Assembly (NCBI RefSeq): GCF_965641715.1
Contig: NZ_OZ282453.1
From: Escherichia coli
GTDB taxonomy: Bacteria; Pseudomonadota; Gammaproteobacteria; Enterobacterales; Enterobacteriaceae
Length of the DNA: 64,000 nucleotides
Direction: 5' to 3' (one strand)
In this document: piece after piece, positions 9,407 to 43,309 of the stretch
Layout of the letters: every line of letters starts with the position of its first letter
How positions within the stretch are numbered: position 1 is the first letter of the stretch
Position numbers and translations under genes: made by a program
Notes under the pieces: model-generated
The model's database searches: none
Told to the model about the DNA's origin: nothing
The model's input: only the letters and a program-made list of their open reading frames with translations

Positions 9407-10075
<669 letters not shown>

Positions 10076-10301
10076 GTGGCGGTAACACGGTCTCAACGAT
10101 ATGACGCTGCACACTACGATAAAAAAGAGGAGTTTAAAGATAAGATAAAGGGCGGCTTCAGGGGGATAAAATAGAATGTAATGCGCAGAAAACACGTATA
10201 AATTTCAAACAACGATGGTTAAAAAGTTAGCTGGGTCAACTCCCCCACACTGAGTCGGTGGAGGAGTATTCGTGATTAAGGGACGAAGGTTATAGACCGT
10301 G

Positions 10302-12533
10302 TTAGTTCTCAACCATCAATCGGGAAAGTTTGGCAAAAATCGAACTCTTACTACTTTCGCCACTCCTGAGCATATCCAGGGTGAAGCTATTGAGGTAAGC
10401 ACCAGTTAACGGGTGGTTAAATACATCTACGGCCTTACCTTGGGCGTCCCATATCAGCAGATTTTCTACCAGGTTAGGCCGTGCAATAGTAGGATTTGTA
10501 GGCTGAGCATCGCTTACCAGAACAAACACTCCATTCACATGCGGTTGCAGGTAAATATGGTGATGCTTCATCTTTTGAGTTTTGGTCAACGAGTCGTATT
10601 TCGAGCGGCCCGGTGATATCAGATAGGGCAGTACGTTTTGCTCCAATTTTGCTGAGCGGGTGATGGTATAGCCGTTAAATTTATCACCTTTACGCTCCGC
10701 CAGCGCTTTTTCTTGTTCCTGATAAGCATATGAATCGACGATATTAAATTGCGCTGGGCCAATCAGGCGCGGCACGCGGGAGCTGTTATAGGTGGTAAGC
10801 AGCACATCTGCTGTGTGGTCGTAGAGATAGAAGCTTTTATCGAATAATTTCTTTAGTCGTCCCAGAGCTGGATGATCAACAGATAGATACTCGAATTCAC
10901 CTTCAGCGATCCCGGTATCAACCACCCTAAGTTGGCCGCGCTCTATTTTTAGTTCAACATATCCAAGCAGGGAGAGATAGCTTTTTGTTTTGCGTACTGA
11001 ATAGGCGGTATAGTGCCCATCCGCCAATTCTGGCAGTGGTATGTTATGTTGATTGAGTAAGCTCTCTTTGAACCATAGTTCAGTTTTTGTTCGGCGTACC
11101 TTACTTTTCAATAAGGTAACTGCTGACTTGAGACGACTGTGTGGTTTCGTCAGTTCGATTTCGTATTGTGCAGGGTTGCTTACCAATTGTTCATTAATAA
11201 AATCAATCGCATCCAGCAACTTACGATCAATATTCATTCCTTGTAAAACCACAGGCACCGGTTGCTGATTTAGCCACCCTTGCAAACGATCTAGCTTAAG
11301 CTGGGTATAGGTATCCCAGTTGAGTTCAGGCTGTTTTCGGGCGTCGTCAAAGGCTGCATAGAAATCATTGTACTCAACAGATTCATTCTCTTGCTGCCGG
11401 ATGCTGTTGCTTCGTTCTTCCTCTACCGCATTGAGTACCAGAATAGATGTATTGGCAGGCAGCTCAGCAAATCCGGTTTGTCGGGAATGCTTAAGCGATG
11501 CAAGAGGCCAGAGTTGATACCCAGGGAACTGGTTGGCTAATGCATCAAAGAAATAAGCTTCTTGCGTGACGCTGAATTCGACGCCGTTATTAACCACCAA
11601 CAGCGTATTAGCCAGCTGTTGATCGAGGTCGGTAGCAAACTGATTGACCTCGTGTGTAGCCTGAAATGGGATAGGTTGATGGGGGATCTCTAGTTCACTG
11701 AGGCGCTCGCTGGCAGCATTCATGACCACGTTATAGGTATAGACCTGGCATTCGCCATAGCCGCTGCGCTCACGAAAAAAATCCAGTTTGCTATCACGGG
11801 CATCAAGTTTGCGCCGAGCTTTAAGCCGACGATTATCGATGTTAAACCACACGCTGGTATCATCCAGGGATAGGTGCATCTCATCCGCCGGTTCGACCAG
11901 GAATTTTCGTTTGTGCAAGGTAAAAGCGAGTTCATTATATTCTGAGGCATAAATGTCGAGCTCAAAGGCTTCCATCACCCCGATGCCTTTTTTTTGTGTG
12001 ACGGGCTGACTCAGACGAGCGTTAAGGTAAAGCGTTGAGTTGAAGTAAGTCGGCGATACCGAAAAGCGCTCACTGGCTTTTTCCAGCATTACCATTTTCA
12101 AATGCAGGCTAAATAATCCCTGAATCAGGCGAGATAGGTCATGATTTTCAGCGGTGAGTTGCTGACAAAGCGTTTCAATACGTTCTGCCAACGTCCTATG
12201 AGCCTGACTGTTCGGGTTAGTTGCAGGCGCCAGGAAAAAAAAGACGTGATGGTAATTTGGTAAGCAATGCAGTTCATATTTTACCTCCTGCCCGGCCTCC
12301 AGCCCAAGCTTCTGCCGCACGCAAGATTTTACCTCCTGATGAATTCGCGCATAGTAATCAGCGGATTTTTCTTTTCGCTCTTTAGTAAAGCGCTGAACCA
12401 TAAAGTCTATCGTATAGATATTAGATACAGGGGCCAATAGACGCTGGATGGTCGTCAGCTGATCTTCTTCAAGCTTGATCAAATTGGTTCGGGCAATCGG
12501 AGCATCCGTCAGTTCATTCAAATTAGGGATCAT
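10302..12533 (-). CDS. Uncharacterised 743-aa protein, downstream partner of the helicase-like gene
   Basis: Long ORF whose ATG overlaps the stop of the upstream gene (ATGA at 12530-12533); no nucleotide-binding or methyltransferase motif recognised by eye. Confidence 0.7.
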   Translation of the reverse strand: MIPNLNELTDAPIARTNLIKLEEDQLTTIQRLLAPVSNIYTIDFMVQRFTKERKEKSADYYARIHQEVKSCVRQKLGLEAGQEVKYELHCLPNYHHVFFFLAPATNPNSQAHRTLAERIETLCQQLTAENHDLSRLIQGLFSLHLKMVMLEKASERFSVSPTYFNSTLYLNARLSQPVTQKKGIGVMEAFELDIYASEYNELAFTLHKRKFLVEPADEMHLSLDDTSVWFNIDNRRLKARRKLDARDSKLDFFRERSGYGECQVYTYNVVMNAASERLSELEIPHQPIPFQATHEVNQFATDLDQQLANTLLVVNNGVEFSVTQEAYFFDALANQFPGYQLWPLASLKHSRQTGFAELPANTSILVLNAVEEERSNSIRQQENESVEYNDFYAAFDDARKQPELNWDTYTQLKLDRLQGWLNQQPVPVVLQGMNIDRKLLDAIDFINEQLVSNPAQYEIELTKPHSRLKSAVTLLKSKVRRTKTELWFKESLLNQHNIPLPELADGHYTAYSVRKTKSYLSLLGYVELKIERGQLRVVDTGIAEGEFEYLSVDHPALGRLKKLFDKSFYLYDHTADVLLTTYNSSRVPRLIGPAQFNIVDSYAYQEQEKALAERKGDKFNGYTITRSAKLEQNVLPYLISPGRSKYDSLTKTQKMKHHHIYLQPHVNGVFVLVSDAQPTNPTIARPNLVENLLIWDAQGKAVDVFNHPLTGAYLNSFTLDMLRSGESSKSSIFAKLSRLMVEN

Positions 12534-15500
12534 GAGACTTTTCCTTTAGTCGGCAACTTTTCTACACCCAGCAGGGTTAGTAACATTGGGTTAATGTTCA
12601 ATGTCATGCTCAGTTTCGAATTTTCCAGAGCTCGTCCGCTCTCTCGATTTTTGGGCTGATAGTACTGATAGTCGGTTTGCAACAGGTTAAGGTAGTGGAT
12701 CGTGTGATCCACGTTATCTTGCCACATCAGATTATTGGGGTTCTGGCTGTAGGCGACGTTCAGATAGACAAATCGAATGCGTTCGTAACGGCCTGACAGC
12801 ACAGCCTGAAGCTGTTTCTGTCCCTCTGTATCCGCCTTTTGGCTGGTGATATTACGGATCTGGCGAATCTTGTTGTTGCTTTTCTCAAGCGTTTCTTCTG
12901 CCCGCGTTAAATCATCCAACTGCGTCGCCCAGCGTTTAACGTCGATGCAGAGCAGGTCGTTACCCACTTCAATAAAGCGGTCAAAAAACTCATATACTAG
13001 CGGTTCAAGGCGTTCAAACACCTGTTGATCAGAAAGTGGGGTAACGCCATAGCTTTTTAGCACTTTATCGAAGAGATATTCACCGACATTGCCTTTGAGC
13101 AACGGAACTAGCCTGGGGTTGGGTACCCATTTTTTGAATGCCGTTTCCTGGATGTTGTCACATTCACGAATCAACTCGCCGACCAGGTTGCCGGGGGTAA
13201 AATCGACATCGTTTCTATACTGCGGAAAGAGGGTGAGCTCAGGCCGGTACTCTCTTGCGCCGCCAGCGAAATCCGACAGGGCGGAATAATCTCTGTGGAC
13301 AAGTCCATCCGGGCCGCGTTTGTGGCAAAGTAAAATAGTTTGATTGCCCTGATGGCGGTCGATAAACAGGGCGTGGTGGATTGATTGCATTTGCCGATTG
13401 GCGGCATACAAGGAATTAGCCTGAAGTTTTTCCAGCCAACGCATGGGATTGGTAAAGGAGTCAGAATCGCGGAATAAATTACACAATTCGAGATATTCAA
13501 GGTTGCCGGCGCGTACCTGATTTATCCAGTCGGTTTTCAGGACTCGCTTATGAACAGCATCGATGCGGCGACCATTTTCTACGATAGCCTGTTCAAACGC
13601 ATACCGCTGTTCTGCATCTCTAAATGACTGGTTCTGACTCAGCTTTTCGCACTCCTCCATTAGGCGGTGGTTAAGCAAGGACATGCTTTCTGATACTACC
13701 TCGTTACCGCTATCTTCACTGAGAGCGGCGAACTGGAATGCAACATTACGGAACACATCGCGGGGTAAAAAGATTTCTGTTTTCAATAGAGTGTCGCGAC
13801 GCTCGACTCGCCCTACGGCCTGCACGACGACTTTGAATAAGCTCATATCATGTTCGGCCATTAACAGGCGATAGTTTTCGCCGTGGGCGAAATTAACGTT
13901 GAAATCGGCCAGCTTGTGGACGGTAATATCGTCATCAGCGTAGTGTTTAAGCACGGTAACGTAGTTAGGTAATGTATTAAGATTGCCGCTGTTGTCCTTT
14001 ACTTCGCTGTAAAACGAGGAGTTGATGAGCACTAAGCGCTCAAAATCGACATCCAGACGTGGTGCATTGATATCATTAATATCGCCGTCATGGTATTTCA
14101 CAAAGTAGTTGAGGCCAGTGCCTGCACTTTTGTAGCTGCTCATAAATACCAGTACGGTATTGCTGTTCTTGAGATAGGTTTCTTGCCTAATATCTTCGAC
14201 ATTAGCCAGTGGTGAATCGAAAAAGACCAAATGGACTGTGTGACGCCCTTTGAATGGGGTAAAGGTCAGGATCTGGTCATGTTTCTTATCGTTATCCGTT
14301 TTATCATCGCACCGGGAGTGCATACCGTACTGCTGACGCCAGGCTGATTGATGAGTGCGCCAGGCGCTGATAAAGGCCCGCTTAAATGTCCCTGAAAGGG
14401 ACAAAATCAGGCTGTTTTTACCCTCGTAGGCGGCAAGCAATAACGCTTCAAGCTCCCGCTGGTACTGACGCCGTTTATAGGTATTTTTCAGGTCGTACTC
14501 CAGCGGTTTCTTCAGCGCGTCGAAAAAGTTGTCATACGTCCTGCGATAGATCTCACAATTTTGGTAGATATCGGTCAATTTTAACTGCTTATCATCGAAC
14601 ACCCTGAAGTCGACGTTGCGGATACTGGCTCTCAACGCGCGTAGTGCTCTAAGCGTATCGATATCTGTTTTTTTACGTTCAATGACTCGATAGCCAAGGT
14701 CACGGCTATAGCGCTCCAGGAAGTGACGATTGAAGTTACCGTTTTTGGTGTGGCTAAAACCACTGGTGGCGCTAAATCCAATCACTTTATTGTGCGTGCC
14801 CGTTAATAAACGTAGCAGCATGGCTTCAGGCAACTCTTGTACCAGATCCATCTCAAACGCCAGAATAATTGTACGCTCGGCTCCACTGTTCACGTAATTG
14901 AGTTCAACTATCGGCGTCATCGTGAATACGGTTTTGGGTTGCAGATAAGTGTAGAAATGATCAATCAACAAGTTTTTATCGGTGGTGCGATCGAAGATAT
15001 GTCGCACCACTCCAGCTACATTATTGGCTGCGTCAACAAATTGGCCCAAAGGTGTATTCTGGCTGCTGGAGTTATCCTGGCCACCATTTTTTACCCAGCG
15101 CTTAAAGTGTCGGTTGGTGATATCAGAACAGGCGGCGAGGATGACGGAGACCAATTGGAACAGATCGTGCAGTGTGGGATTGGTGTCGCTGGCATCATTT
15201 TCGACTTCGTAATATAGCTCGGTGCGCGTTATGTCGCCTTCGCTGTTGCGCATACGAATGCGTTTCAGCCCCTCTTCATTAACGTACATTTTGGGGTTAA
15301 AACTGAACACATTCCGGGTAATGGAAATGATGCGTTCGGCGGCGTCGCCGTTAACTTCGAATGCTCCTAACTGGTCGCGAAACATCTCCAGGATCGAGCC
15401 CAGCGTCGTACCGGGTGATAATTCGCACTTTTTCGCCAGTAGGTCTCGAAGGATGGTGATGAATTTGACCATCTCTTGCTCAAAGGTCGTTTGCGCTTCT

Positions 15501-17239
15501 TTGGGCTTTTTCCGGCGCTCCAGGCTGAGTACCGCATTGTGAATACGTCCCGCGACAGAGATAACATGCGCCAGATTATTTTCCTGTGTGATTAGCTTTA
15601 CATGGCATGTTTCTTCAAGACGGGTGTAGGCTTCATGTAGTTCATCAATGATTACCGTAAAGCGAATATTTTTCTGGCGAAAAGGGCAGTCTGGATTACG
15701 TCTGAAGTGTTCATCACGAAGATAAGCAACCTGCCCGGAATGGCCAGCTGCCGCAACGGTGCTGATCTGTGGATCTTTGGGAGCCAGCTTGCCACCAATC
15801 AGCAAGTCGAAACCTACGGACTCAAAATGCACGCCTTCACCTCGCTGACGAGGCGCCAGTCGGTAAGTTGATGTGTCGAACTTATTTGTAGTCATTAATA
15901 GCACCGACGGGCGGTACTGGCAAACTTCGAAAGGCAATACCTGTTTGATAAGCTCGAAGTAGACTTCGTGTACGCTTAGTTCAGACTTGCTTGGTTTTCG
16001 TGCTGTCTCCGCGTGTTGCATTCGCTCTTGGCGCGCCTGGAGCCCGCGACGAATGTACTCTTTAATGGAAGCTTTTTCACTATCTGGTCCAAATAGTAAT
16101 TTACAGGCTGACTCAATCGTATTGCGGATACTATGACGACAGTTTTTTAGCTGCTCTTCAAGAATTTCTCTTTCGTAGTTGTTATCCTGAGAACCGTATG
16201 TTGTCAGCTTTTTTAACTGCTCTTCACAGCGATCAATTTGTGAGACATGGTAATTGAGCGAACGCATTGCGCTGCCAATATATTTGCTACCTTTCGCCCC
16301 TTCGTACCACTGAATATAGCGGTCGCGATTTTTCAGGCCCGTGGCCCAGTCCATAAAGTCGAGATCGGCAATATCCTTACGAGAGAGAACGCAAATGAAT
16401 TCGCCGCCAGAAGCCAGAATTTTATCTTTCTGGCTGCTATCCAGGTCGATTTGTGATTTTTGCGGCGACATGAACAGCAGGTTGGTAAAGCCACCTTCGG
16501 GAAACAGATCATCTGACTTTTGTTTTTTGGCGAAACACTCCAGATATTCGACATACCCTTGAATTACGCCATAACTTTTGCCAAACCCCGTGCCATCGGA
16601 ACTGAAGATGACCTCCGCGCCATCACGTTCATGCACGTGGTAAAGTTGAGAAACTTGGGCGCGGCAAGCGTTAATATCTTCAACCAGCGTTATGTCAGGA
16701 ATTTGCCTGGAGATGAGATCTTGCAGATTATTATTGATAGTTATCTCTCCCACACGCTCACACTCACGGTAACTATTGATGGTTATTTGGCTGCTTTCGA
16801 GCAGAATCTTTTCCACTTGCATGGGAGCAAGATGCAAGGCTGTTGCAATTTCATTGATAGTATCTGATAGAGGTTCGTGTGGATTGCTAATCGTGAAGTG
16901 GTTTAGTACTGCTGCAACGGTATCTGGATGCAATGCTTTTCTGAGAGTGGGGAAGGTGAGGCTGTAATCGTATAGCGCCAAATCATTGTTTATCAGACAG
17001 CGAAACAGCTGTTTAGTGGGATCGCCTCCAGGACGGCTGGCAAATCCCAGGATTTTTGCCTGTTCGAGTCGATACAACAATGCTGCAGCATCGCGATCAG
17101 GTGAGTCAAATGCATCGTGAAGCTGCTGGCTAAATGGCATTGTGGCATTCAGCCGGTTATGGCTGACCAACGCGGAAAAGTGCTGACGTACCAAGGTAAG
17201 CAGCTTACAATCTTCCTTTATAGTCCAGTTTTTTCTCAT
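12530..17239 (-). CDS. Large SF2-helicase-like NTPase (about 1570 aa from the ATG at 17239; the ORF track begins at a GTG at 17275)
   Basis: Walker A DGTGFGKSYG, DExH-like Walker B VIIDELHEAY, motif III-like GFSATSGF, motif V-like SSYKSAGTGLNYF, motif VI-like QAVGRVERR, then about 400 aa of C-terminal sequence without recognisable motifs; GGGGAAG ribosome-binding site before the ATG at 17239. Confidence 0.7.
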   Translation of the reverse strand: MRKNWTIKEDCKLLTLVRQHFSALVSHNRLNATMPFSQQLHDAFDSPDRDAAALLYRLEQAKILGFASRPGGDPTKQLFRCLINNDLALYDYSLTFPTLRKALHPDTVAAVLNHFTISNPHEPLSDTINEIATALHLAPMQVEKILLESSQITINSYRECERVGEITINNNLQDLISRQIPDITLVEDINACRAQVSQLYHVHERDGAEVIFSSDGTGFGKSYGVIQGYVEYLECFAKKQKSDDLFPEGGFTNLLFMSPQKSQIDLDSSQKDKILASGGEFICVLSRKDIADLDFMDWATGLKNRDRYIQWYEGAKGSKYIGSAMRSLNYHVSQIDRCEEQLKKLTTYGSQDNNYEREILEEQLKNCRHSIRNTIESACKLLFGPDSEKASIKEYIRRGLQARQERMQHAETARKPSKSELSVHEVYFELIKQVLPFEVCQYRPSVLLMTTNKFDTSTYRLAPRQRGEGVHFESVGFDLLIGGKLAPKDPQISTVAAAGHSGQVAYLRDEHFRRNPDCPFRQKNIRFTVIIDELHEAYTRLEETCHVKLITQENNLAHVISVAGRIHNAVLSLERRKKPKEAQTTFEQEMVKFITILRDLLAKKCELSPGTTLGSILEMFRDQLGAFEVNGDAAERIISITRNVFSFNPKMYVNEEGLKRIRMRNSEGDITRTELYYEVENDASDTNPTLHDLFQLVSVILAACSDITNRHFKRWVKNGGQDNSSSQNTPLGQFVDAANNVAGVVRHIFDRTTDKNLLIDHFYTYLQPKTVFTMTPIVELNYVNSGAERTIILAFEMDLVQELPEAMLLRLLTGTHNKVIGFSATSGFSHTKNGNFNRHFLERYSRDLGYRVIERKKTDIDTLRALRALRASIRNVDFRVFDDKQLKLTDIYQNCEIYRRTYDNFFDALKKPLEYDLKNTYKRRQYQRELEALLLAAYEGKNSLILSLSGTFKRAFISAWRTHQSAWRQQYGMHSRCDDKTDNDKKHDQILTFTPFKGRHTVHLVFFDSPLANVEDIRQETYLKNSNTVLVFMSSYKSAGTGLNYFVKYHDGDINDINAPRLDVDFERLVLINSSFYSEVKDNSGNLNTLPNYVTVLKHYADDDITVHKLADFNVNFAHGENYRLLMAEHDMSLFKVVVQAVGRVERRDTLLKTEIFLPRDVFRNVAFQFAALSEDSGNEVVSESMSLLNHRLMEECEKLSQNQSFRDAEQRYAFEQAIVENGRRIDAVHKRVLKTDWINQVRAGNLEYLELCNLFRDSDSFTNPMRWLEKLQANSLYAANRQMQSIHHALFIDRHQGNQTILLCHKRGPDGLVHRDYSALSDFAGGAREYRPELTLFPQYRNDVDFTPGNLVGELIRECDNIQETAFKKWVPNPRLVPLLKGNVGEYLFDKVLKSYGVTPLSDQQVFERLEPLVYEFFDRFIEVGNDLLCIDVKRWATQLDDLTRAEETLEKSNNKIRQIRNITSQKADTEGQKQLQAVLSGRYERIRFVYLNVAYSQNPNNLMWQDNVDHTIHYLNLLQTDYQYYQPKNRESGRALENSKLSMTLNINPMLLTLLGVEKLPTKGKVS

Positions 17240-18364
17240 TCTTCTTCCCCTTAATATAAATGCACCTGCAACCACTCAGCCAAACGCTCAACGTCAAAAC
17301 CCGTAATCCATACTCCCACGCCAAAAACGTCTTCGATAAATATTCATCATATTTTCGAGGCACTTTTCAGAGATGCTCTTGGCAAGACGGGACTCAGGGG
17401 GTAAACCTTCCTGTAGTAAATTGCTTAGCGTCTGCTTAACTTTCCCGAGCGTATTTTTTCAACTACGGCAGCAAATGAGACGGTCTTAAAACCGTGCAGG
17501 ATAGGCCATATCTACAACGTGTTTACTACTTGAGCACACATTGTGATATGGCAGTCACCTTTCCGACAAATGGTGAACCGTCCCTGACGAACAACAACAT
17601 TAACGCATATCTCTTCATCGCCTGATCAAAGTAGCTGCCAACTATTATTCGCCTCAACAATGAGTTTTTTTACTAACGATTTCTACTACCTTCCCAAAGC
17701 GACCACAACAATCAAAAATATTGTTTACACATCAGTCTCATATCACCGGAGTAAGTTGACTATTGATAAACCATTTCAAGATATTAATAGCTGATCATAC
17801 TTCCCCAAAGTGCTTATTTATAGCGAAGGCAAATAGCATAAACTGAAGGGCGAATTGTTAAATCATACCGTGAATGAGCTGAAGAACAAGCATAAAAATT
17901 ATATCATTTACATGACTTATGTGTTTTAGTTAAATGATAAATAGGCAGTATAAAATCCAATTCAACAGCCGAGTTCAAGCGATTAATTTTTTGATGAGCT
18001 TATCAAGCACGAGCAGCGATACCAGCAAATCCACTTGGTTGCTTGAAGAATATGACTCCTTCAACACATAGCAGATTATCTCCGCCGTTGGTAGAGAACC
18101 GTTCACCGTTGTTAGTCAACAGTTATAAATTTATATTAATGATTAGAAGAATCTATCTCGGGGTAGATCATCAACATTACTTATTCTAAACCACGTTACA
18201 CATGATCTCCGGGGCAGCGAAGTCATCAAAAAAGAGTATTATAAAACTCCGCCCTTAAGGAGAAAGGTTTCCTGGCGGTTGTAATGCCGTTGACGATACA
18301 GCGCACAACACGGATATAAACAACCATTTGATTGATTAATATCTGAAGGGCTGTTTATATTTAA

Positions 18365-18635
18365 TCAAGCTAACGATTCATTAATCTTTACATAGAGATG
18401 AGGTAATGTGGCCTCATTGCGATTCACATCCAGATAATCCGCCCCCCACTGCAGCATCTGCCGCTCTACCGCATCTCTCGGCCATAGCCCCGACTCAATC
18501 AACGACCTACACGCCATTGCCCTGAAACCATGCCCACAAAAAGCAGCTCTCAATTTCCATTCATGCTTTATACCTTTTCTAATAGGCTTTTGCTTCAGGC
18601 TTAGCCGAACGAACCTTCACATCACTCAAAGCCAT
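18365..18635 (-). pseudogene. Internally deleted P4-type integrase remnant
   Basis: N-terminal piece MALSDVKVRSAKPEAKAY-stop (18579-18635) and C-terminal piece ...GHGFRAMACRSLIESGLWPRDAVERQMLQWGADYLDVNR (18365-18553), both matching the intact integrase at 41841-43109. Confidence 0.7.
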
Positions 18636-18766
18636 GATGAATACCCTTTCAAGGGTTTTGTGTGGGTACAAACATTATCCAATCGGGATATACCCGCAGC
18701 TGTAGCTGTACCCGCATCAGTAAGTTGATGTAGATTCGAAAAATAGCGGAAACCCTGTGTGACACT

Positions 18767-18821
18767 GATTTCAGGCACAAAAAAAGACGTCTGTTGACGT
18801 CTATTGATGGTGCGAAGGCCG
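18767..18821. repeat. Degenerate copy of the leuX terminator and tRNA 3' end (attachment-site remnant)
   Basis: GATTTCAGGCACAAAAAAAGACGTCTGTTGACGTCTAT...TGGTGCGAAGGCCG compared with 43261-43325 GATTTCAGGCATAAAAAAAGACCTCAGTTGAGGTCTAT...TGGTGCCGAAGGCCGG; the hairpin keeps pairing through compensatory changes. Confidence 0.65.
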
Positions 18822-18937
18822 CACCGCGATTCCAGACTCAACAATATGAAATCAATGGATTTTTAAAAATGCGAAGTTACTTTGTATACTCACATGTATA
18901 CTCAGTACCATTTCTTAAGAAATCAATTCATTCAATA

Positions 18938-19744
18938 CTACTCATCATCGTCTTCCACTGGTTCCAGCACATCAAGCGCAACTCGCACCATAGCGATAGA
19001 ACCAATACGAATGAAAGCATCTTCTCCATCTTCGTCGGTTATCATAAAACGATCCGTGGTTTCAGGCTCGCAATCCAGCGCGTCAAAAAAAGCATTCAAC
19101 TGGCCGATATCATCCGTCTCTTCGTTTTGCGGCGCATCTGGCTCAACACTCAGTGGAATCACTGGTCCGCCGTTTACCAGCGTGATATGGACATTAAAAT
19201 AATCGTCTTCGTAGGCATCATCCTCTTCGTCAACGATTGGCCGCAGACCATCAGAAAGGAACTGATGAAATACCACTTCACGCATATTTAACGCATAACG
19301 ATACTCGGAAGAATCAAAAACGAAGAAGCGTTCTATGTTTGGGGCGTTTTTTTCCTGAAAATAATAATAAAACCTCCGCTTATCCGCTGCTGAAATGGGC
19401 AACAGCAAATAGTCCCTCTGCCCCTGTAGCCAAAGTTTTACGGTCCAGAGACCGCTATCCATTTCAATGCCGCTTGTGGCTATAGCCTCAAGATCTTCAT
19501 CAGTTTTACGACGCTTTTTGCGGAAGTCGTTTATCAACCGATCGCTTTCCGGGAACACTACGTTTAGAGGCTTATCCAGAGCATTACATATCGCCTGTGC
19601 GAGACCCAGCTTTGCAGCAACCTTCCCGGTTTCGATACGCTGAATTTGTTGCTGGCTGGTGCCGACCATAAACGCCAGCTCGCGCTGGGTGATAGATAGC
19701 TGGGTACGGAGCTGTTTGATGTTGTTCTGTAACATGGCATCCAT
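18938..19744 (-). CDS. XRE-family helix-turn-helix protein with a long acidic C-terminal region
   Basis: N-terminal HTH (LSITQRELAFMVGTSQQQIQRIETGK); C-terminus ends ...LDVLEPVEDDDE. Confidence 0.55.
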   Translation of the reverse strand: MDAMLQNNIKQLRTQLSITQRELAFMVGTSQQQIQRIETGKVAAKLGLAQAICNALDKPLNVVFPESDRLINDFRKKRRKTDEDLEAIATSGIEMDSGLWTVKLWLQGQRDYLLLPISAADKRRFYYYFQEKNAPNIERFFVFDSSEYRYALNMREVVFHQFLSDGLRPIVDEEDDAYEDDYFNVHITLVNGGPVIPLSVEPDAPQNEETDDIGQLNAFFDALDCEPETTDRFMITDEDGEDAFIRIGSIAMVRVALDVLEPVEDDDE

Positions 19745-19849
19745 CCTTCAGAAGGAATAGAAAGTGCCATTAAAACACAAAATTGAGTATAAACACATAA
19801 TCGTGTTTACACTCACTAATCAACACCCTTGAACGAAAAGAAAATCTCT

Positions 19850-20125
19850 TCATCGTTCTTCTCTGGTATGCCAGAGATCAACTATATAAATGTCATTGTC
19901 ACGAAGTTCGTAGTGAACCTCATAGTCATCAAATAACACTTTTCGGACTTCCCGAGGTTCATACCGAGTCTGCTGTACACCAATTGCCGGATGTGCTGTA
20001 AGACCAGCACAACCAGTAATCAGGCGATCCAAAACGTCATCGGCGTGCTGGCGGCTATACTGAAGGGCGAAACGATAGATACGCTCAAGGTCATCCTGAG
20101 CTTTAAGCGTCCAGTAAATTTCCAT
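19850..20125 (-). CDS. ParE/RelE-superfamily toxin (91 aa)
   Basis: Small protein directly downstream of a ribbon-helix-helix-type antitoxin gene with a 3-bp gap; ParE-like size and sequence character. Confidence 0.6.
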   Translation of the reverse strand: MEIYWTLKAQDDLERIYRFALQYSRQHADDVLDRLITGCAGLTAHPAIGVQQTRYEPREVRKVLFDDYEVHYELRDNDIYIVDLWHTREER

Positions 20126-20128
20126 TTA

Positions 20129-20377
20129 TCAGGATTTCTTTAAGCGATTAGCAAAATCCACCATGTCCGAGTGGCTCATCACACGACCGGCATCCACATC
20201 ATCAAGACCGGCCTGGATGCTCTGGTGACGCCGTTCTCTTTCGGCCAGCATACTGGTCAACGCTTCCTTAATAATCCAGCTCTTAGAACGGTCCAACTCA
20301 ATTGCCAGATTCTCAACAGCAGCGGCCAATTCAATAGGTATCTGTGCGCTGATGGTTTGTTTAGTAAGCGAACCCAT
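20129..20377 (-). CDS. ParD/CopG-type antitoxin (from the ATG at 20377; the ORF track starts at 20401)
   Basis: MGSLTKQTISAQIPIELAAAVENLAIELDRSKSWIIKEALTSML...; GAGG ribosome-binding site before 20377. Confidence 0.6.
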   Translation of the reverse strand: MGSLTKQTISAQIPIELAAAVENLAIELDRSKSWIIKEALTSMLAERERRHQSIQAGLDDVDAGRVMSHSDMVDFANRLKKS

Positions 20378-20453
20378 AGGGATTACCTCGTTTAATAACA
20401 TTTAATAACTCCTATTAATATTAGCATAGAGGTGCCTATAAAAACATCACATC

Positions 20454-21311
20454 TCATTTTGCAGGCAACATCCCGGGAAAGTGCTTCGCCACGATATCAT
20501 TCATCTTCTCCACCAGATCCAAACGTTTGAAAGTGATATGCCCACTGCCCTTCTGAAAGTAGCGAATAGTGAACAACTCATCTTCGAAAATCTGCTGATG
20601 CGGATTATCGCGCACAAAATCCATAAACCGGATGGAGACATCATGCCGGTTATCGGGAATGGCCTTCCCATCCAGCAGATAGAACATCCGTTCCAGATCG
20701 GCAAGCTGATCGCGCCGCCAGCCCCAGTTCAGGCTGTAGCCCCATCTGTCATGCTTCACCAGATTGTTAACGATAATCTTCTTACCGAAATAACAGGGAT
20801 TATTGGTTTTGTAGTCCCAGCTCAATCCCTTAAATACATTGATAATCCCACGTTCGAAAACATCCTGCTTATTGTGGTGAAGTTGTTCAAAGGTACTCAG
20901 GATGTTGGCTTCGCTAATCGCCGGGGGATCGCCCTCCTCCAGATTCTTTGCCCACTGACTGCGAGCTTCGGCATCCATCAGAGTCAACATACCGGACTTC
21001 AGCATGAGATCGCGCCAGATGCTGCGGTCGATATTGCGGGTGATCACCGGCATCGCTTTGTCGGTTGGCTGCATCAGCCAGCAGTCAAAGGCATATCCAT
21101 TCCGCATTGCCCAGGTTCCAGCCATATCACCGCCAATACTGGATGTCAGGCTGGAGATATCATCCAGTTTTTGGATTAACGTCGCTATCTGGTTCAGTGC
21201 ACTATCACGTCCTGTGACGATGCGCTCAATACTGGTCGAGCAAATTAGTTCGTTATGATCGGTTAAGACTTCAGCTTCTGTTTGCATAATCTTTTGTCCG
21301 TATAAAAGCAA
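20454..21311 (-). CDS. Hypothetical protein in the YeeW-like position downstream of the CbtA-like toxin
   Basis: ORF and position in the cryptic-prophage backbone only. Confidence 0.45.
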   Translation of the reverse strand: MLLYGQKIMQTEAEVLTDHNELICSTSIERIVTGRDSALNQIATLIQKLDDISSLTSSIGGDMAGTWAMRNGYAFDCWLMQPTDKAMPVITRNIDRSIWRDLMLKSGMLTLMDAEARSQWAKNLEEGDPPAISEANILSTFEQLHHNKQDVFERGIINVFKGLSWDYKTNNPCYFGKKIIVNNLVKHDRWGYSLNWGWRRDQLADLERMFYLLDGKAIPDNRHDVSIRFMDFVRDNPHQQIFEDELFTIRYFQKGSGHITFKRLDLVEKMNDIVAKHFPGMLPAK

Positions 21312-21401
21312 ATGCGCCAGCCATGAACAGCAGGCGCATTATGCAGGGAGTTATGAGGGAAGTAATTTTGGCGATGTAAATCGGGAAGGAGACTCGCAGA
21401 T

Positions 21402-21743
21402 TCACCGTGCCGTGGTGTTATGGCAGCGACGCAGCAGACCTGTAGCCTGCCTCGCCCGCAAAATATCGACCGCACGAAGATAAGGCATCTGTTCCTGCCA
21501 GCTAAATCCTTTCCTGTCGATACGGATCAATTCGTACTTCTCTACCAGAAAATTGACGGCATCGACCAGAGTGATCCCGGCGTCTATGTGTTCCTGAATC
21601 ACCTTTTCATTGTTGAATGGTGTGTCATTAAGATTCAGCCCGTAGTGCTGCTCCAGCAGGCGGGCCAGTAATATTTGCCAGACCACGACGGGCGACAGAT
21701 AAGACGTCGTCGCCCGCAGCGTCGTTGCAGGAATAATTTTCAT
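21402..21743 (-). CDS. CbtA/YeeV-family toxin (cytoskeleton-binding type IV toxin)
   Basis: ...[56 protein letters not shown]... resembles CbtA/YkfI/YpjF. Confidence 0.8.
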
Positions 21744-21773
21744 AACGATGTTCCGTATTAAGGAGGTTAAAAC

Positions 21774-22109
21774 TCAGCGTTGAGTGGGATAAATAGCGAT
21801 ATAGACGTAACCACAGGAACCCAGCGTATCGGCTTCGCAGGTTAGTCCTTTGGCGTATAGCGTGACGGTACGTTTTTGGCAGGCGGAGAGTTCACCGTCA
21901 GCCAGTTTCAGCTCCAGTTGTTTCATCAGCACCGGAAAAGCCTGGTCGATATGCAGCAGATCCGGGGAGCTGAATTTCCCGGTGATTGCGGCCCGATCAG
22001 CCAGGTAATGCAGGTTATGTCTTTCCTGTACCAGTCGAGCAGTGAAGCGTGGTGTTACGGTACAGGGAAGCCCCCATTCTTGTTGCATGACCTTGTCCTT
22101 TTGCAGCAT
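21774..22109 (-). CDS. CbeA/YeeU-family antitoxin
   Basis: ...WGLPCTVTPRFTARLVQERHNLHYLADRAAITGKFS...TVTLYAKGLTCEADTLGSCGYVYIAIYP resembles YeeU/YfjZ. Confidence 0.8.
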   Translation of the reverse strand: MLQKDKVMQQEWGLPCTVTPRFTARLVQERHNLHYLADRAAITGKFSSPDLLHIDQAFPVLMKQLELKLADGELSACQKRTVTLYAKGLTCEADTLGSCGYVYIAIYPTQR

Positions 22110-22582
22110 TACAGCCAGCCCCGTTCGGCAAAAGAGAGGACATCCCCCGCCCCAATAATGAAATGATCCAGCACTCTCACTTTCACCAAATCCAGTGTCT
22201 TAACAATATTCGTTGTAATAAGTCTGTCGGCCCGACTGGGTTCCGTCACGCCGGAGGGATGGTTATGCGCAAGGATCACTGCTGCGGCATTGTGCCGTAG
22301 CGCTGATTTCACAATCTCACGGGGATGTACTTCTGTGCTGTTAATCGTGCCGAGAAATAGCGTTTCGTGTTCCAGCAGTCGGTTCTGGTTATCGAGGTAG
22401 AGCACAACAAACATTTCCCGCTCCTGTCGTACCAGATTCAGTTGCAGCCAGGTTTTTGTGGCGTCAGAGGAAAGAAAAGATTCGCCAGGATTGCGTTGAT
22501 ATTTCTCCAGCAGACGCATCGCACGGCGGATAACGCGTTGTTCACTCACCGAAAATACCGGTGTTAGCATCAGTTCAGACAT
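22109..22582 (-). CDS. RadC-like JAB-domain protein (YeeS/YkfG/YfjY family)
   Basis: JAMM-like motif AAAVILAHNHPSGVTEPSRADRLIT. Confidence 0.85.
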   Translation of the reverse strand: MSELMLTPVFSVSEQRVIRRAMRLLEKYQRNPGESFLSSDATKTWLQLNLVRQEREMFVVLYLDNQNRLLEHETLFLGTINSTEVHPREIVKSALRHNAAAVILAHNHPSGVTEPSRADRLITTNIVKTLDLVKVRVLDHFIIGAGDVLSFAERGWL

Positions 22583-22611: not shown

Positions 22612-23430
22612 TTATGAGGCCAGTTGCAACATGTTTTCAGCCATCACCCACAGGGCGCGGTTGAGTTTGATATCGCCGTCGATGCCTTTAATGGCGCGGG
22701 TGTTCGTGCGACCACCTTTTGCCGTGCGCCCGTTTAACCCGCCTTTGATCAGGTTCTCCTGAATACGCTGGTAGGTCGTCCACAGATCGCCGGATTCATC
22801 CTGCCAGCGGCGCGGAGCCAGCAACTGGGATTCCGTCACTGGCTGGTGCTCTTCGCCAAAGCGGTAAGTCAGCGCCGCCTTTGCCAGCGCCTGTTGCGCA
22901 GGGGGAGGCAGCATCAGCGACTGCATGGCATCGAGTTTCTCTTCAACCTGGTCAAAAACACTGAGGACTTCAAAAGCGCCTTCAATCACTCTCTCCACCA
23001 CATTGCCTTTATGCGGTACCCGTACTTCACCAAACGACTCGCCGCAGACCAGTCCGTTACAACAAACAGATCGAAACAGCCCTGGCAGCATCTGATAAGA
23101 ACTGGAACCGTCATGGCTGTTGAGCAGAATAATTTCCGGCACCTGGTTGCGATTGATCTGGTCTTCCCGGCGCAGACGCAGCATGTGTTTTGTATGCTCA
23201 CGTTTACCCACATCACGAACGCGGGTCTGGCAGGCAAAGAAAGGATGAAATCCTTCACGCTGGAGGTTATCGAGCAGGGTAATGGTGGGAATATAGGTAT
23301 AGCGTTCGCTGCGTGATTCGTGCTTATTTTCCCCGAATACGCTGGGGACATACTGCATCAGTTCGTCATGCGTTAATGGGCGATCGCGACGGATTTGATA
23401 TACGCGACCAAAGCGGCTGGCTAATTTCAT
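22612..23430 (-). CDS. DUF932-like protein (YfjQ-like, cryptic-prophage backbone)
   Basis: 272-aa ORF in the conserved backbone position; family assignment from memory. Confidence 0.6.
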   Translation of the reverse strand: MKLASRFGRVYQIRRDRPLTHDELMQYVPSVFGENKHESRSERYTYIPTITLLDNLQREGFHPFFACQTRVRDVGKREHTKHMLRLRREDQINRNQVPEIILLNSHDGSSSYQMLPGLFRSVCCNGLVCGESFGEVRVPHKGNVVERVIEGAFEVLSVFDQVEEKLDAMQSLMLPPPAQQALAKAALTYRFGEEHQPVTESQLLAPRRWQDESGDLWTTYQRIQENLIKGGLNGRTAKGGRTNTRAIKGIDGDIKLNRALWVMAENMLQLAS

Positions 23431-23666: not shown

Positions 23667-24620
23667 TCAACCACGGGATAATCTTGTTTCTATTCCCTGA
23701 ACCCTTTCATCTATTAGTCTTTCAATAACGGATATTTTATCTGACTTGTAAAATTTAACCAGAAAATCCAGACGTTCCTTATGCATATCACTGATAGACT
23801 CCCGTTCCCGTTTTTCAGAAAGTTTACGTCTGAAGTTTTTTTGGTAAAACGCTTTATTTATTTTCTTTACAGCATTCTGCTGGAGATCATCATCCGCTGA
23901 CCATAAATCCAGCATGGCATAAACTGCGTGATAGGTTTCTACACTATTCAGTGGTTCCGGAATCTGAACGGGGTCTAAATGGTTTCCTGTATTACCGCCG
24001 TGCTCTTTCTGGAATTTATTAATGTAATTATAAGCCCATGTACAGACTTCGCTATTATCCTCAGTAAGCCAGCGTAATTTTATTCTCTGATGTTCATTTG
24101 CTCTCCAGAATACAAGCCTCTCATATAGCCACTGTCTCATCAACGGTGCCTGATTAGTCTCAATATTAATATAGTCCAGTAATGCAACGATGAGTGAGTA
24201 TCTTTCGCTATGGCTTGCAGGAGAATCTGTTATTCCGGCTTTCTGATACCAGTTAGTGTTTAAATTCGTGCCCAGCTTATTGTTAATTGACTCCATACAG
24301 CGGTAATCAAGACACATCACACCCCATAGCCAGAACGTCGCTCTTTCATTTTCTTTTAACCAACTAAAATATTTCTCCGGCAGAAGTGTCGTATTAATTG
24401 CCAGTTCCAGTGAGCGAATAAAATTGCTCCGCTGAATGGGGTCGGGATACCCGGCCTCGAGTGCTGTATTAATAATTCTCTCCGAAAGGGATGTATCTGG
24501 ATTGTTCCCGTCAAACGCGAATTGATTTGCTCCCTGAATGTTTTTCCTGATGTACCAGAAGAGGAACCTGCTGGTTCGGATGTCCTTCACTGCTATTGAT
24601 GAGCGCACATTAACGGCCAT
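23667..24620 (-). CDS. Hypothetical protein (317 aa)
   Basis: ORF only; Trp/Tyr-rich, no motif recognised. Confidence 0.45.
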   Translation of the reverse strand: MAVNVRSSIAVKDIRTSRFLFWYIRKNIQGANQFAFDGNNPDTSLSERIINTALEAGYPDPIQRSNFIRSLELAINTTLLPEKYFSWLKENERATFWLWGVMCLDYRCMESINNKLGTNLNTNWYQKAGITDSPASHSERYSLIVALLDYINIETNQAPLMRQWLYERLVFWRANEHQRIKLRWLTEDNSEVCTWAYNYINKFQKEHGGNTGNHLDPVQIPEPLNSVETYHAVYAMLDLWSADDDLQQNAVKKINKAFYQKNFRRKLSEKRERESISDMHKERLDFLVKFYKSDKISVIERLIDERVQGIETRLSRG

Positions 24621-26366: not shown

Positions 26367-27152
26367 TTAGGAATTAAATGTCCAGCTCCCCGTATCGGTC
26401 ACAATGTCAGCTTCAATGATACGGTCACACTTCATATATTTGAACGTAGCCACATCACCGAATTTATATTTAGCTGGCAGGGTTCTGTTACCGACGCTCT
26501 CCATTTTACAGTTCCCTCTGTTTACCCGAATGGATTTCAGCACCACGTTGTCATCAGTGATAGTGAGCTGAATAACACCATATCTGGTATTCCAGCCTTC
26601 ATTGCTGACAGAGCTGCCGAACTGAACTTTAAACGGTGGTGTCGTAGATTGCTGTGCCTGCTGTTGTTGAGAGGGAGCAGGTTTATTAGCCTGCTGGCTA
26701 CCAACGCCATTAATGCCATTCTGAAGGAGGCTCCTGGAAACCTTAATGGTACCCGGCTTGCATGATACTGTGCTGGTTTCCTGCCCCATTGCATTCATGG
26801 CAGTGTAATAAGCATCACCTGTACCATCATATTCTGAGTAATTGACGGCAACCGCGCCTTCGATATCTTCATTTTCTCCACGTAATGTGAAAGAAGCAGT
26901 TCCTGCTCCCGGATTAGCCGCCAGAGTCTGTTTCGCTTCGCCGGAAGGAATATCCAGTTTGATAACGGAACCACCTTCTTCGGAGTCACCACCTGGCGTT
27001 TCAAAACTGATATAAACGGTATTGCTGACGTGGCTGAGTGTCATTTGCTCACCGTTATCAAGCAGACATTGCAGGTCATAGGCCCCGACAGCATAAGCAG
27101 GGTGGAATGCAAATAAAAATACAAACAATACAGGTATAATGATTGGTTTCAT
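26367..27152 (-). CDS. Secreted hypothetical protein (261 aa)
   Basis: Signal peptide MKPIIIPVLFVFLFAFHPAYA; Gln/Ser-rich linker; no enzymatic motif. Confidence 0.5.
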   Translation of the reverse strand: MKPIIIPVLFVFLFAFHPAYAVGAYDLQCLLDNGEQMTLSHVSNTVYISFETPGGDSEEGGSVIKLDIPSGEAKQTLAANPGAGTASFTLRGENEDIEGAVAVNYSEYDGTGDAYYTAMNAMGQETSTVSCKPGTIKVSRSLLQNGINGVGSQQANKPAPSQQQQAQQSTTPPFKVQFGSSVSNEGWNTRYGVIQLTITDDNVVLKSIRVNRGNCKMESVGNRTLPAKYKFGDVATFKYMKCDRIIEADIVTDTGSWTFNS

Positions 27153-29216: not shown

Positions 29217-30194
29217 TTAACGTGCCCGCTGTTTTATCGGCTCAAAAAACATATCCCAGAGATGTTCAGCCATACCCTCGTTAGTGAGCAAGGTATCCCT
29301 TGAGTAGCCAGGGCTGAAGACGCCCATTGATGGGCGAAAACCAAGGTTCTGGCCGTTATTGTCAATGGTTAAGATTTCATTGTAAGCATTGCCAATCACG
29401 CCATCCTGGCTATAACCAATATCGCCCATCCCCATATTTCGCCCGCTATTACGCCAGATTGCACATTGACCTACTTTGCTTCCCCCAATGTAGATCGCAC
29501 AAGTGAAGGCATCTGCGTCACGCTTATTAAAATCGACCTCTAACCCGGCATGGCGTTTTTTGAGTTCAGTCAGCGAGCCTTCAAAATAACGGGCGACATA
29601 TTCAAAACCGTCACGGCAGGCACGATCCTTATCAAGATCGGTAAAACGTTTTGGCAGTGAAAGGTTGCTCGAGCGTGGTGTAAAAACGGTATCCGTCGCC
29701 TGAAGCATTGGATTAGCCGGAGCTGGGGCGTGCACAATCTGTTGCGGCTTTTTCGCTTCCAAATTGGCAATAGCGCGGGAAACGGCATCGACAACCTGAA
29801 CATAGCCTTCATCATGGCTGGCAAATTTATCAATTGGCTTACCGTCAACAGTTGCCGCCAGAATGCGGCCAAACGGTAACATCTTCCACGCGCATTCTCT
29901 TAAGATCACCGGAATGACCACCGCCTCGCCCCGGCTATGTCGCTCCAGAGCGTTGGTCATTTCTACCTGATAGCAATAATCAGAAGCGATAAAATCACTG
30001 CTAATCAGCAACAGGATGATGTCTGCCTGAGAAAAGTAATGATCTATTTGGTTCTCAAACTCTTGTCCTGGAATGATGCGACGATCATGCCATGTCGTGA
30101 TCTTGCCCATGCGTTTCAGGGGGGAAAGATGCTTCTCAAGCTCATTGCGCAGAGCTTCGTCTGCATGAGAATAGGAAAAAACAAGAGAGGTCAT
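29217..30194 (-). CDS. TIR-domain protein with an uncharacterised C-terminal domain (325 aa)
   Basis: N-terminal TIR signature LVFSYSHADEALRNELEKHL...IILLLISSDFIASDYCYQVEMTNALER...VVIPVILREC; divergent from hsdM. Confidence 0.65.
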   Translation of the reverse strand: MTSLVFSYSHADEALRNELEKHLSPLKRMGKITTWHDRRIIPGQEFENQIDHYFSQADIILLLISSDFIASDYCYQVEMTNALERHSRGEAVVIPVILRECAWKMLPFGRILAATVDGKPIDKFASHDEGYVQVVDAVSRAIANLEAKKPQQIVHAPAPANPMLQATDTVFTPRSSNLSLPKRFTDLDKDRACRDGFEYVARYFEGSLTELKKRHAGLEVDFNKRDADAFTCAIYIGGSKVGQCAIWRNSGRNMGMGDIGYSQDGVIGNAYNEILTIDNNGQNLGFRPSMGVFSPGYSRDTLLTNEGMAEHLWDMFFEPIKQRAR

Positions 30195-39706: not shown

Positions 39707-40672
39707 ATGCCTTTAGATTTAAGTAACACTTTAGTTATTGGCATTAGCGCGACTGCGCTTTTTGACATGAGCGAATCCGACCATATGTTTCGGGAAACCT
39801 TTGCGACTGATCCTGATAGCGCCATTGAAAAATACCGCGCTTATATGCTAGAACACGAAAACCAACCTTTACAGCCCGGAACAGGCTACCCCTTAGTCAA
39901 AGCGTTGCTGGGTCTGAACCAGTACCGTCAACCGGATGATAAATCGCCGTTGGTTGAGGTTGTTGTGATGTCACGTAACAGCCCTGATACAGGTATCCGC
40001 GTTCTCAATACCATTCGCCATGACAAACTCGATATTACACGTTCAGCTTTTACCGCAGGCGAAACCGTTGCCGATTACCTTGATGCCTTTGATGTGGATC
40101 TGTTTTTAACGACCAACGTTGAAGATGCGCAAAAGGTGATTGATTCCCGATTCTGCGCCGCTGCAATCCTGAAAGATCCACCTTCTGACGCATCTGATAT
40201 CCCAGAAGGGCAAGTGCGCATTGCTTTTGATGGCGACGCGGTACTTTTTTCCGATCAAAGCGAACTGGTTTATAAGACCCAAGGAATGGCTGCCTTCCAT
40301 GCTCAGGAAGACGCGCAGCAGGATATCCCTATGGAAGAGGGGCCTTATGCCACTTTGCTAAAAAAAATAGCCAAGCTTCAGGAACGATTGCCGACCCGCG
40401 TTGAGTATTCTCCTGTTCGTATTGCGCTGGTGACAGCCCGAAATAGCCCTTCGGAAATGCGCGTTATTAAAACGCTAAGAAGCTGGGGGGTATATGTCGA
40501 TGAAGCTTTTTTTCTTGGCGGTGTAGAGAAAACAAAAGTTCTGAAGGCGTTTAGGCCACACATTTTCTTTGACGATCAGGATGTGCATTTGATCGCGGCT
40601 GCAAAGGTAGTACCTTCTGGTAAAGTACCTTATGCCAGTAACTCCGAACTTGCAGAACGTGAAGCATCGTGA
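39707..40672 (+). CDS. 5'-nucleotidase-family protein (HAD-like)
   Basis: HAD-type motif IAFDGDAVLFSD and C-terminal FFDDQDVH; family assignment from memory. Confidence 0.5.
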   Translation: MPLDLSNTLVIGISATALFDMSESDHMFRETFATDPDSAIEKYRAYMLEHENQPLQPGTGYPLVKALLGLNQYRQPDDKSPLVEVVVMSRNSPDTGIRVLNTIRHDKLDITRSAFTAGETVADYLDAFDVDLFLTTNVEDAQKVIDSRFCAAAILKDPPSDASDIPEGQVRIAFDGDAVLFSDQSELVYKTQGMAAFHAQEDAQQDIPMEEGPYATLLKKIAKLQERLPTRVEYSPVRIALVTARNSPSEMRVIKTLRSWGVYVDEAFFLGGVEKTKVLKAFRPHIFFDDQDVHLIAAAKVVPSGKVPYASNSELAEREAS

Positions 40673-43109: not shown

Positions 43110-43270
43110 AATGGTCTTCCTTCCATTGGTATCTCGTGAGTATACAAGCAATATCGAATCGGCAAATATACTCATTAGTATACTCACAAGCCTGTTGATG
43201 TGGGTTGGTTCAGGTTGACTTCAGTTGAGGAGAAAAGCTGGAAAAGCCTTGCGTGGCGCGGATTTCAGGC

Positions 43271-43298
43271 ATAAAAAAAGACCTCAGTTGAGGTCTAT
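43271..43298 (-). terminator. Rho-independent terminator downstream of leuX
   Basis: Hairpin AGACCTCAGTTGAGGTCT followed by a T-run on the tRNA strand. Confidence 0.6.
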
Positions 43299-43309
43299 TT
43301 ACATACTTT

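Follow-up and report, generated by a model that had tools for sequence, protein, structure and literature searches.

Two toxin–antitoxin modules of known families at the integrase-distal end of a leuX island of Escherichia coli

A stretch of 64,000 nucleotides (nt) from the chromosome of Escherichia coli (contig NZ_OZ282453.1; hereafter the window) carries a genomic island inserted at the tRNA gene leuX, and two toxin–antitoxin (TA) gene pairs lie close to the island end opposite the integrase. One pair consists of a ParD-like ribbon-helix-helix (RHH) antitoxin and a ParE-like toxin, the other of a CbeA-like antitoxin and a CbtA-like toxin. Both are intact, independent TA modules of known families, and their exact proteins have already been catalogued and named. 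In our opinion, they are very probably best explained as an accessory block at the integrase-distal end of a P4/CP4-type leuX island, with a mechanism and a role that would be those expected of their families.

The region of 18.9–23.4 kb is, according to the map of open reading frames (ORFs), an uninterrupted run of genes, all located on the minus strand (Table 1). The first-pass annotation of this DNA had placed a ParD-like and a ParE-like gene at 20377–19850 and a CbeA-like gene followed by a CbtA-like gene at 22109–21402, downstream of a RadC-like gene, and had proposed profile searches as a check. These searches were carried out, with Pfam calls judged against the curated cutoffs, and all four proteins matched their families far above the cutoffs; the coordinates and the minus-strand orientation proved exact, and the radC-like gene directly precedes the cbeA-like one. 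The scores of the four TA genes and radC are far beyond chance, and the TA ORFs are full length in comparison with the Pfam models (in the case of the CbtA-like toxin, positions 1–110 of the 112 in PF06755 are covered). Antisense or alternative ORFs at 20481–21179, 21876–22166, 21420–21671, 20171–20395 and 18794–19291 matched no Pfam family, and an Rfam scan of 8–44 kb found no RNA gene besides leuX.

In the genome of E. coli A30, RefSeq names the corresponding proteins as RelE/ParE family toxin, CopG family RHH protein, DUF4942, CbtA family toxin, YeeU family antitoxin, RadC and DUF932; identical proteins are labelled 'TA system toxin CbtA family' for the CbtA-like protein and 'type IV TA system YeeU family antitoxin' for the CbeA-like one. 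The ParE, CbtA, CbeA, RadC, DUF932 and helix-turn-helix (HTH) proteins of the window are identical to RefSeq entries, the ParE-like toxin being WP_001683517.1 and the CbtA-like toxin WP_112826257.1, and the ParD-like antitoxin is one residue (D59A) from WP_024187601.1. The ratios of nonsynonymous to synonymous substitution rates (dN/dS) of all four TA genes, 0.09–0.25, indicate purifying selection. In comparison with a 90%-identical E. coli allele, they are 0.093 for parD and 0.098 for parE; the values for the cbtA-like gene (against ykfI) and the cbeA-like gene are 0.14 and 0.19–0.25, respectively.

In the first pair, the stop codon of the antitoxin gene lies 3 nt before the ATG of the co-directional toxin gene. 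The N-terminal RHH DNA-binding domain of the antitoxin is present (PF01402 above the cutoff), and its nearest solved relatives are the ParD and CopA antitoxins of ParE systems, namely Pseudomonas aeruginosa ParD 6xrw_B (expectation value (E) 4.5e-4, residues 8–71 aligned, the C-terminal half of ParD included), CopA_SO 6iya/7etr (E 2e-3 to 6e-3) and Mesorhizobium ParD3 5ceg_A. In an AlphaFold2 (AF2) model of a fused ParD-(G4S)5-ParE chain with 11 paired sequences, judged by its confidence values, antitoxin residues from about 50 to 80 were predicted as helix-strand-helix with a predicted local distance difference test score (pLDDT) of 95–97, and the linker was below 50. The C-terminal half predicted in this way is consistent with the fold-on-binding C-terminus of ParD-type antitoxins.

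The start of the antitoxin gene at 20377 agrees with RefSeq/PGAP models in near-identical genomes and with the length of 82 amino acids (aa), which is kept in Serratia and Photorhabdus. A longer ORF from 20401 was rejected on conservation, its start falling inside a conserved upstream repeat. This tandem 10-nt repeat reads TTTAATAACA / TTTAATAACT on the plus strand, which corresponds to GTTATTAAA twice on the coding strand; it also precedes the Serratia homologue, and in the Photorhabdus locus a joint change has turned the two copies into TTATTGG. To judge from this pattern, the repeat is a probable RHH operator. Downstream of the toxin gene there is a terminator-like hairpin with a 14-pair stem followed by ATTTTGTGTT; its 13-nt arms are 92% complementary, and the same inverted repeat might instead serve the downstream HTH gene as an operator.

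The Pfam family of the toxin, PF05016, spans the whole RelE/ParE superfamily, including RelE RNases and ParE gyrase poisons, and the label 'ParE-like' therefore called for further tests. The AF2 model of the 91-aa toxin (pLDDT 94.2) shows the order strand-helix-helix, then four strands, in keeping with the ParE fold, in which two N-terminal helices pack against an antiparallel sheet of three to four strands. When it was compared with the PDB using Foldseek, the best 22 matches were all ParE or ParE-like toxins with template modelling (TM) scores of 0.80–0.89, and RelE-type chains (RelE, HigB, YoeB and YafQ) matched worse, with TM scores of 0.5–0.73. A profile of 21 members of the toxin family matched in the PDB exclusively ParE-type toxin chains (5ceg_B, 7etr_C, 5cw7/5czf, 6xrw_A, 6x0a, 8c24 and 7ycs), one of which carries a RelE/StbE deposition label; the weakest match has E = 1. 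The absence of the RelE residues R61, R81 and Y87 has served as a criterion for assignment to ParE (PMC6614396). In an hhalign alignment with E. coli RelE, the low probability of which is considered below, invariant Glu69 stands opposite R61 and invariant Glu89 opposite R81, and the toxin ends before Y87. His86 is also invariant in the toxin family and aligns with the C-terminal His of ParE2; a C-terminal His (H91) is important for the toxicity of ParE_SO (PMC8706911). A search of the PDB with the C-terminal fragment of the toxin, performed to align His86 with His91 of ParE_SO, gave chance matches only, and this equivalence is not established. Taken together, the fold comparison of the model, the profile matches in the PDB and the absence of the RelE catalytic residues favour the placement of the toxin in the ParE branch, without proving gyrase targeting.

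The RHH and ParE genes form an autonomous two-gene unit. An RHH gene of 82–94 aa was found directly upstream of the toxin in 11 out of 11 independent contexts, which were sampled from E. coli islands, Serratia and Photorhabdus chromosomes, IncU, IncF and Ralstonia plasmids and metagenomic contigs. Outside E. coli, neither the DUF4942 gene nor the HTH gene beside the pair is conserved as its partner. The HTH gene adjoins parE in E. coli islands only, and it was rejected as a third TA component, comparable with PaaR in some ParE systems, since in Serratia, Photorhabdus, plasmids and metagenomic contigs it does not accompany the pair. Of the 5,426 complete E. coli genomes, 91 contain the pair, each with one copy only, in the chromosome, and 106 homologue clusters are distributed across Enterobacterales. 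Relatives with 44–48% identity (one with 64%) were found on 1,712 plasmids, mostly conjugative, and include a very common IncF/FII-adjacent module; homologous RHH+ParE pairs with 44–48% identity reside on IncF, IncU and other plasmids, and the pair is common beside replication genes of conjugative plasmids.

A carbonic anhydrase gene is located directly downstream of the RHH+ParE pair in a Serratia chromosome (L007 6407–7042) and a related metagenome contig (L009 905–1540), and likewise follows the pair on an Aeromonas IncU plasmid (L012 2826–3554), where the toxin is 48% identical to that of the window; a second Serratia-like contig has it one gene farther downstream (L008 6096–6731). This gene and the pair may represent a small co-travelling unit, or the association may be a coincidence.

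Among the characterised systems, ParE_SO/CopA_SO of the CP4So element of Shewanella oneidensis (7ETR, 6IYA) likewise shows, on a CP4-type element, a CopG-type RHH gene that directly precedes the gene of a ParE-fold toxin, and the profile of the window toxin family matches ParE_SO with E 4e-3. The sequence relation is distant, however, and the structural match to 7etr_C (TM 0.64) is weaker than those to other ParE toxins. The first-pass annotation had stated that the families of both pairs stabilise cryptic prophages. For a ParE/CopG pair this holds, as ParE_SO/CopA_SO was shown to stabilise its CP4-type element (PMC8706911). The term 'prophage' is a historical label here: the ParE-like toxin had no match in 50,697 phage genome records and the CbtA-like toxin a single one, in an unannotated 3.2-kb record. 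Mesorhizobium ParDE3 (5CEG/6X0A), P. aeruginosa ParDE (6XRW), PaaA2-ParE2 of E. coli O157 (5CW7) and Caulobacter ParDE1 (3KXE) share the toxin fold with the window toxin, and chromosomal and plasmid ParD-ParE systems have the same two-gene operon layout and lack the same RelE catalytic residues. A related plasmid ParDE family causes filamentation and an SOS response (PMC6614396). ParDE-I of IncI/IncF plasmids (PMC6614396) is also among these systems; its identity with the IncF homologue is not confirmed.

In the second pair, the toxin is 77% identical to YkfI, 69% to YpjF and 57–59% to CbtA of E. coli K-12. F65 is invariant in a four-way alignment with these proteins, and each of the three K-12 toxins loses FtsZ binding when this residue is replaced (PMC5624674). 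At position 15 the window toxin has Tyr in place of Arg15, the MreB determinant of CbtA. Replacement R15C disrupts MreB binding in CbtA, but YkfI and YpjF have Cys15 and still act on MreB (PMC5624674), and Arg15 is therefore not family-defining. A search of the PDB found no structure of the CbtA family. The CbeA-like antitoxin matches the PDB entries 2inw (E 1.6e-46), YeeU 2h28 (E 5.9e-44) and YfjZ 2ea9 (E 7e-36) and shows 66–67% identity to CbeA and 59% to YafW and YfjZ of K-12. An alternative ATG of its gene at 22091, preceded by AAGGA, would give a protein of 105 aa, as in YfjZ and YafW.

The genes for DUF932, RadC, CbeA and CbtA are co-oriented, with a gap of 29 nt between the first two, an overlap of the radC stop with the cbeA start (TAATG, 22109–22113) and a 30-nt junction between cbeA and cbtA; promoter-like sites were noted in the 236-nt spacer upstream of the DUF932 gene. 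The K-12 pairs CbtA/CbeA (CP4-44), YkfI/YafW (CP4-6) and YpjF/YfjZ (CP4-57) have the same antitoxin-then-toxin order downstream of radC and DUF932 genes and lie near the attachment sites of P4-like elements (PMC5371832), as in the window. In comparison with them, the window pair is a fourth allele pair, with a toxin nearest to YkfI and an antitoxin nearest to CbeA. A DUF987 gene of the yeeT/ykfH/ypjJ type, present between radC and cbeA in all three K-12 elements, is not found there in the window, and the CbtA-like gene is followed by a full DUF4942 gene, whereas K-12 has yeeW in this place. Interpretation of the DUF4942 protein as a full-length YeeW was rejected, as it has no similarity to K-12 YeeW.

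The assignment of both pairs to the distal end of the newer module of the island, also made in the first-pass annotation, was borne out by the structure of the locus. The only tRNA gene in the window is leuX, with a P4-type integrase gene beside it. At the inner junction, 18750–18805 is 82% identical to 43244–43299, the island arm flanking leuX, and next to it stands TGGTGCGAAGGCCG, a copy of the leuX 3' end in degenerate form. The stretch 9407–18641 of the window is missing from two other E. coli strains, and homology resumes exactly at 18806. A truncated integrase gene at 18365–18553, just outside the junction, is 79% identical to part of the intact leuX integrase. According to these sequence comparisons, 18806 to about 43310 (24.5 kb) is one island module, and what lies to its left is left over from an earlier insertion; 18365–18830 is the scar of tandem accretion of two islands at leuX. 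The TA genes occupy the integrase-distal 3.3 kb of the island, 1–3.3 kb from the junction at about 18806. The whole 4.6-kb block is 99.5% identical to the E. coli A30 chromosome, and 81 of the 5,426 complete E. coli genomes contain at least 80% of its length.

The data above show that the genes are present and intact, to which families and fold they belong, that they are conserved under selection, that the parDE pair is autonomous and where the genes lie in the island; that the toxins are toxic, what they act on, how the pairs are regulated and what they do for the island or the cell we infer from knowledge of the families. The ParD-type RHH dimer would act as an autorepressor, binding probably to the tandem TTATTAA repeats upstream of its gene, and the C-terminal half of this antitoxin would wrap the ParE-fold toxin. 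Once the supply of the labile antitoxin stops, as it would if the island were lost, the ParE-like toxin set free would most likely poison DNA gyrase and cause growth arrest; ParE of RK2 and others poison gyrase (PMC6614396, PMC11925232). The CbeA/CbtA pair probably shares its expression with the DUF932 and radC genes upstream of it. Its toxin would bind FtsZ and MreB, with division and elongation blocked as a result, and its antitoxin would counteract the toxin in a type IV manner; CbeA acts on the targets of the toxin by bundling FtsZ and MreB, without binding the toxin itself (summarised in PMC5371832). The ParDE pair most likely serves to retain the island once it has been excised, because ParE_SO/CopA_SO on CP4So and the plasmid relatives are analogous; effects in stress or on phages are possible. 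The role of the CbtA/CbeA pair is less clear than that of the ParDE pair. Phenotypes reported for CbtA/CbeA comprise cell-shape toxicity, stress resistance and effects on biofilms (PMC5371832, PMC5624674).

Several results weigh against the interpretation of these genes as two TA modules with the familiar mechanisms. NCBIfam gives no equivalog-level name for any of the four TA proteins, and no PADLOC defence model matches any of them. A consensus scan revealed no sigma-70 promoter upstream of parD, and the fused ParD-ParE model offers confidence values only and no contacts. In sequence, the toxin is only weakly similar to solved ParE proteins, with E 0.37 for a single sequence and 4e-4 at best for a profile. 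The hhalign alignment to RelE has a low probability of 3.4%, and the absence of the catalytic residues is therefore supportive, not strong. The top structural matches include PrpT (7ycs) and PfiT (9w3a) (TM 0.84–0.87), two toxins of the ParE fold that act on other targets, and gyrase poisoning is therefore not guaranteed. The other half of the earlier statement on cryptic prophages did not find support, as stabilisation of an element by CbtA/CbeA is not demonstrated in the literature consulted.

The 91-aa toxin could have a ParE fold and a target other than gyrase, as reported for PrpT and PfiT, or it could be a RelE-type ribosome-dependent RNase, which would also be covered by PF05016. Such a toxin would fit the high rank of PrpT and PfiT among the structural matches and its identity of only about 19–26% to any gyrase-validated or solved ParE, as well as the label 'RelB3_C' of the antitoxins of distant relatives in precomputed Pfam data and a sub-threshold RelB-like match in NCBIfam. 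This possibility is considered rather unlikely, since RelE-type toxins match the model markedly worse, equivalents of RelE R61, R81 and Y87 are absent and all profile matches in the PDB are of the ParE type; the filamentation and SOS response induced by the related plasmid ParDE family point in the same direction, with the reservation that the identity of this family to the plasmid homologues is not verified.

The preferred explanation of the ParDE pair as a retention system should also be compared with phage defence. Some TA systems defend against phages, and one or both modules might act mainly by abortive infection as a part of the defence payload of the island rather than in its retention. 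The same module carries a ThsB-like protein with a TIR domain (PADLOC ThsB1, E 3e-157), PDC-S08 (E 5e-134), an HNH nuclease and a WYL regulator, and it has long ORFs in the region in which type I restriction-modification genes are found in the related A30 island. A 2025 preprint describes defence-carrying elements in which 'moron' modules with RadC/ArdB antirestriction and CbtA/CbeA genes stand beside the direct repeat opposite the integrase (PMC12458937). The position and gene content of these modules are as in the window, the island of which also carries defence genes; no ParDE pair is mentioned in the part of that description available, and the window has one. A predominant role in defence seems doubtful, to about the same degree as a toxin with another target, because the four TA proteins lack a PADLOC model, parDE is common on conjugative plasmids beside replication genes, which is the classic addiction context, and the closest characterised CP4-type analogue stabilises its element (PMC8706911).

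The same preprint bears on another reading, in which DUF932-radC-cbeA-cbtA is an establishment or anti-restriction 'moron' operon and the toxicity of CbtA is an effect of overexpression, so that the pair would not be a true addiction module. The co-orientation and tight junctions of the four genes (29 nt, overlapping and 30 nt) would agree with this, as would the recurrence of the same block with antirestriction genes in other islands and the grouping of RadC/ArdB antirestriction with CbtA/CbeA in PMC12458937. We regard it as distinctly improbable, as toxicity and rescue were shown for all three K-12 pairs and the FtsZ and MreB surfaces defined (PMC5624674, PMC5371832), and F65 is kept in the window toxin.

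A more elaborate idea arises from the 1.8-kb end of the island, 18806–20586, comprising the HTH gene, parE, parD and the 3' end of the DUF4942 gene. This end shares 90% identity with that of the leuX island in E. coli strain 2022CK-00450 (L004 6003–7783), and the rest of that island matches the window's at 71–79% or not at all. Such sharing suggests a recombinational exchange of island ends. The exchanged 'end cassette', with its ParE-type pair, possibly having a non-gyrase target, might then form with the CbtA pair a dedicated system that decides on retention of the island at leuX or triggers abortive infection; this is a speculation to which we give slightly less weight than to the 'moron' operon. 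Finally, it is hardly credible that the four TA genes are decaying relics without current function, as a mosaic island with neighbouring pseudogenes (a truncated integrase, insertion sequence (IS) fragments and a partial restriction gene) and the missing DUF987 gene might suggest, because all the ORFs are full length against the Pfam models, identical or nearly identical proteins occur in many genomes, dN/dS is 0.09–0.25, and synonymous sites are saturated in comparison with Serratia and Photorhabdus, where the toxin is still 76% and 68% identical, respectively.

Table 1. Features of the leuX island and its TA block in the window
Feature	Position	Strand	Remarks
DUF932 gene	22612–23430	-	272 aa; PF06067, 179 bits
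radC-like JAB-domain gene	22109–22582	-	157 aa; PF04002, 149 bits; TIGR00608 above cutoff
cbeA-like antitoxin gene, CbeA/YeeU family	21774–22109	-	111 aa; PF06154 CbeA_antitoxin, 158 bits, E 7e-47
cbtA-like toxin gene, YeeV/YkfI/YpjF family	21402–21743	-	113 aa; PF06755 CbtA_toxin, 189 bits, E 1.8e-56
DUF4942 gene, methyltransferase-like, between both TA pairs	20454–21311	-	285 aa; PF13708, 235 bits
parD upstream region with tandem 10-nt repeat, candidate RHH operator	20378–20453	-	repeat at 20391–20410
parD/copG-like RHH antitoxin gene	20129–20377	-	82 aa; PF01402 RHH_1 (CopG), 30 bits against a cutoff of 20.5
parE-like toxin gene	19850–20125	-	91 aa; PF05016 ParE_toxin, 58.2 bits against a cutoff of 23, E 1.3e-15, residues 3–90 of 91
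Terminator-like hairpin with T-run	19784–19815	-	35 nt after the parE stop
XRE-family HTH gene	18938–19744	-	265–268 aa; PF01381 HTH_3, E 1.7e-13; last gene before the island junction
Inner island junction: island-arm copy and degenerate leuX 3' end	18750–18822		
Defence cargo of the newer module (ThsB-like, PDC-S08, HNH nuclease)	29217–30194, 39707–40672, 40750–41670		
P4-type integrase gene beside leuX	41841–43187		
leuX, tRNA-Leu(CAA), island integration site	43310–43394	-	ARAGORN, Rfam, synteny with E. coli A30

Some other genes of the region deserve mention. From the PGAP start at 21287, the DUF4942 protein would have 277 aa (20454–21287); it matches phrog_6263, 'DNA methyltransferase', with E 1.5e-12. 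The C-terminal part of the HTH protein, about 200 aa with an acidic tail, matches no family. Two conserved minus-strand ORFs of the island, 23667–24620 (317 aa) and 26367–27152 (261 aa), have no match in Pfam, PHROG, NCBIfam or PADLOC. At about 29.4–39.7 kb the window departs from A30, its closest relative, and the cargo has therefore been swapped. In the older island remnant, between IS/HNH fragments and the truncated integrase, two very large adjacent ORFs of 1581 aa (12530–17275) and 743 aa (10302–12533) with a stop/start overlap lie on the minus strand. They match nothing in Pfam, NCBIfam or PADLOC, are called 'hypothetical' in E. coli A30 and are absent from the two strains without 9407–18641; they may be an uncharacterised defence pair.

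Summarizing these data, it may be said that the arrangement is ordinary, common and already known. Mildly new are the candidate parD operator, the missing DUF987 gene, the combination of a YkfI-like toxin with a CbeA-like antitoxin and the 1.8-kb end shared at 90% with a divergent leuX island. The significance beyond correct annotation is small; the ParD/ParE clade could add a data point on the diversity of ParE, with no surprise expected. Two addiction-type modules at the integrase-distal end help to explain the persistence of such defence-carrying islands, and the result marks the island boundary at about 18806.

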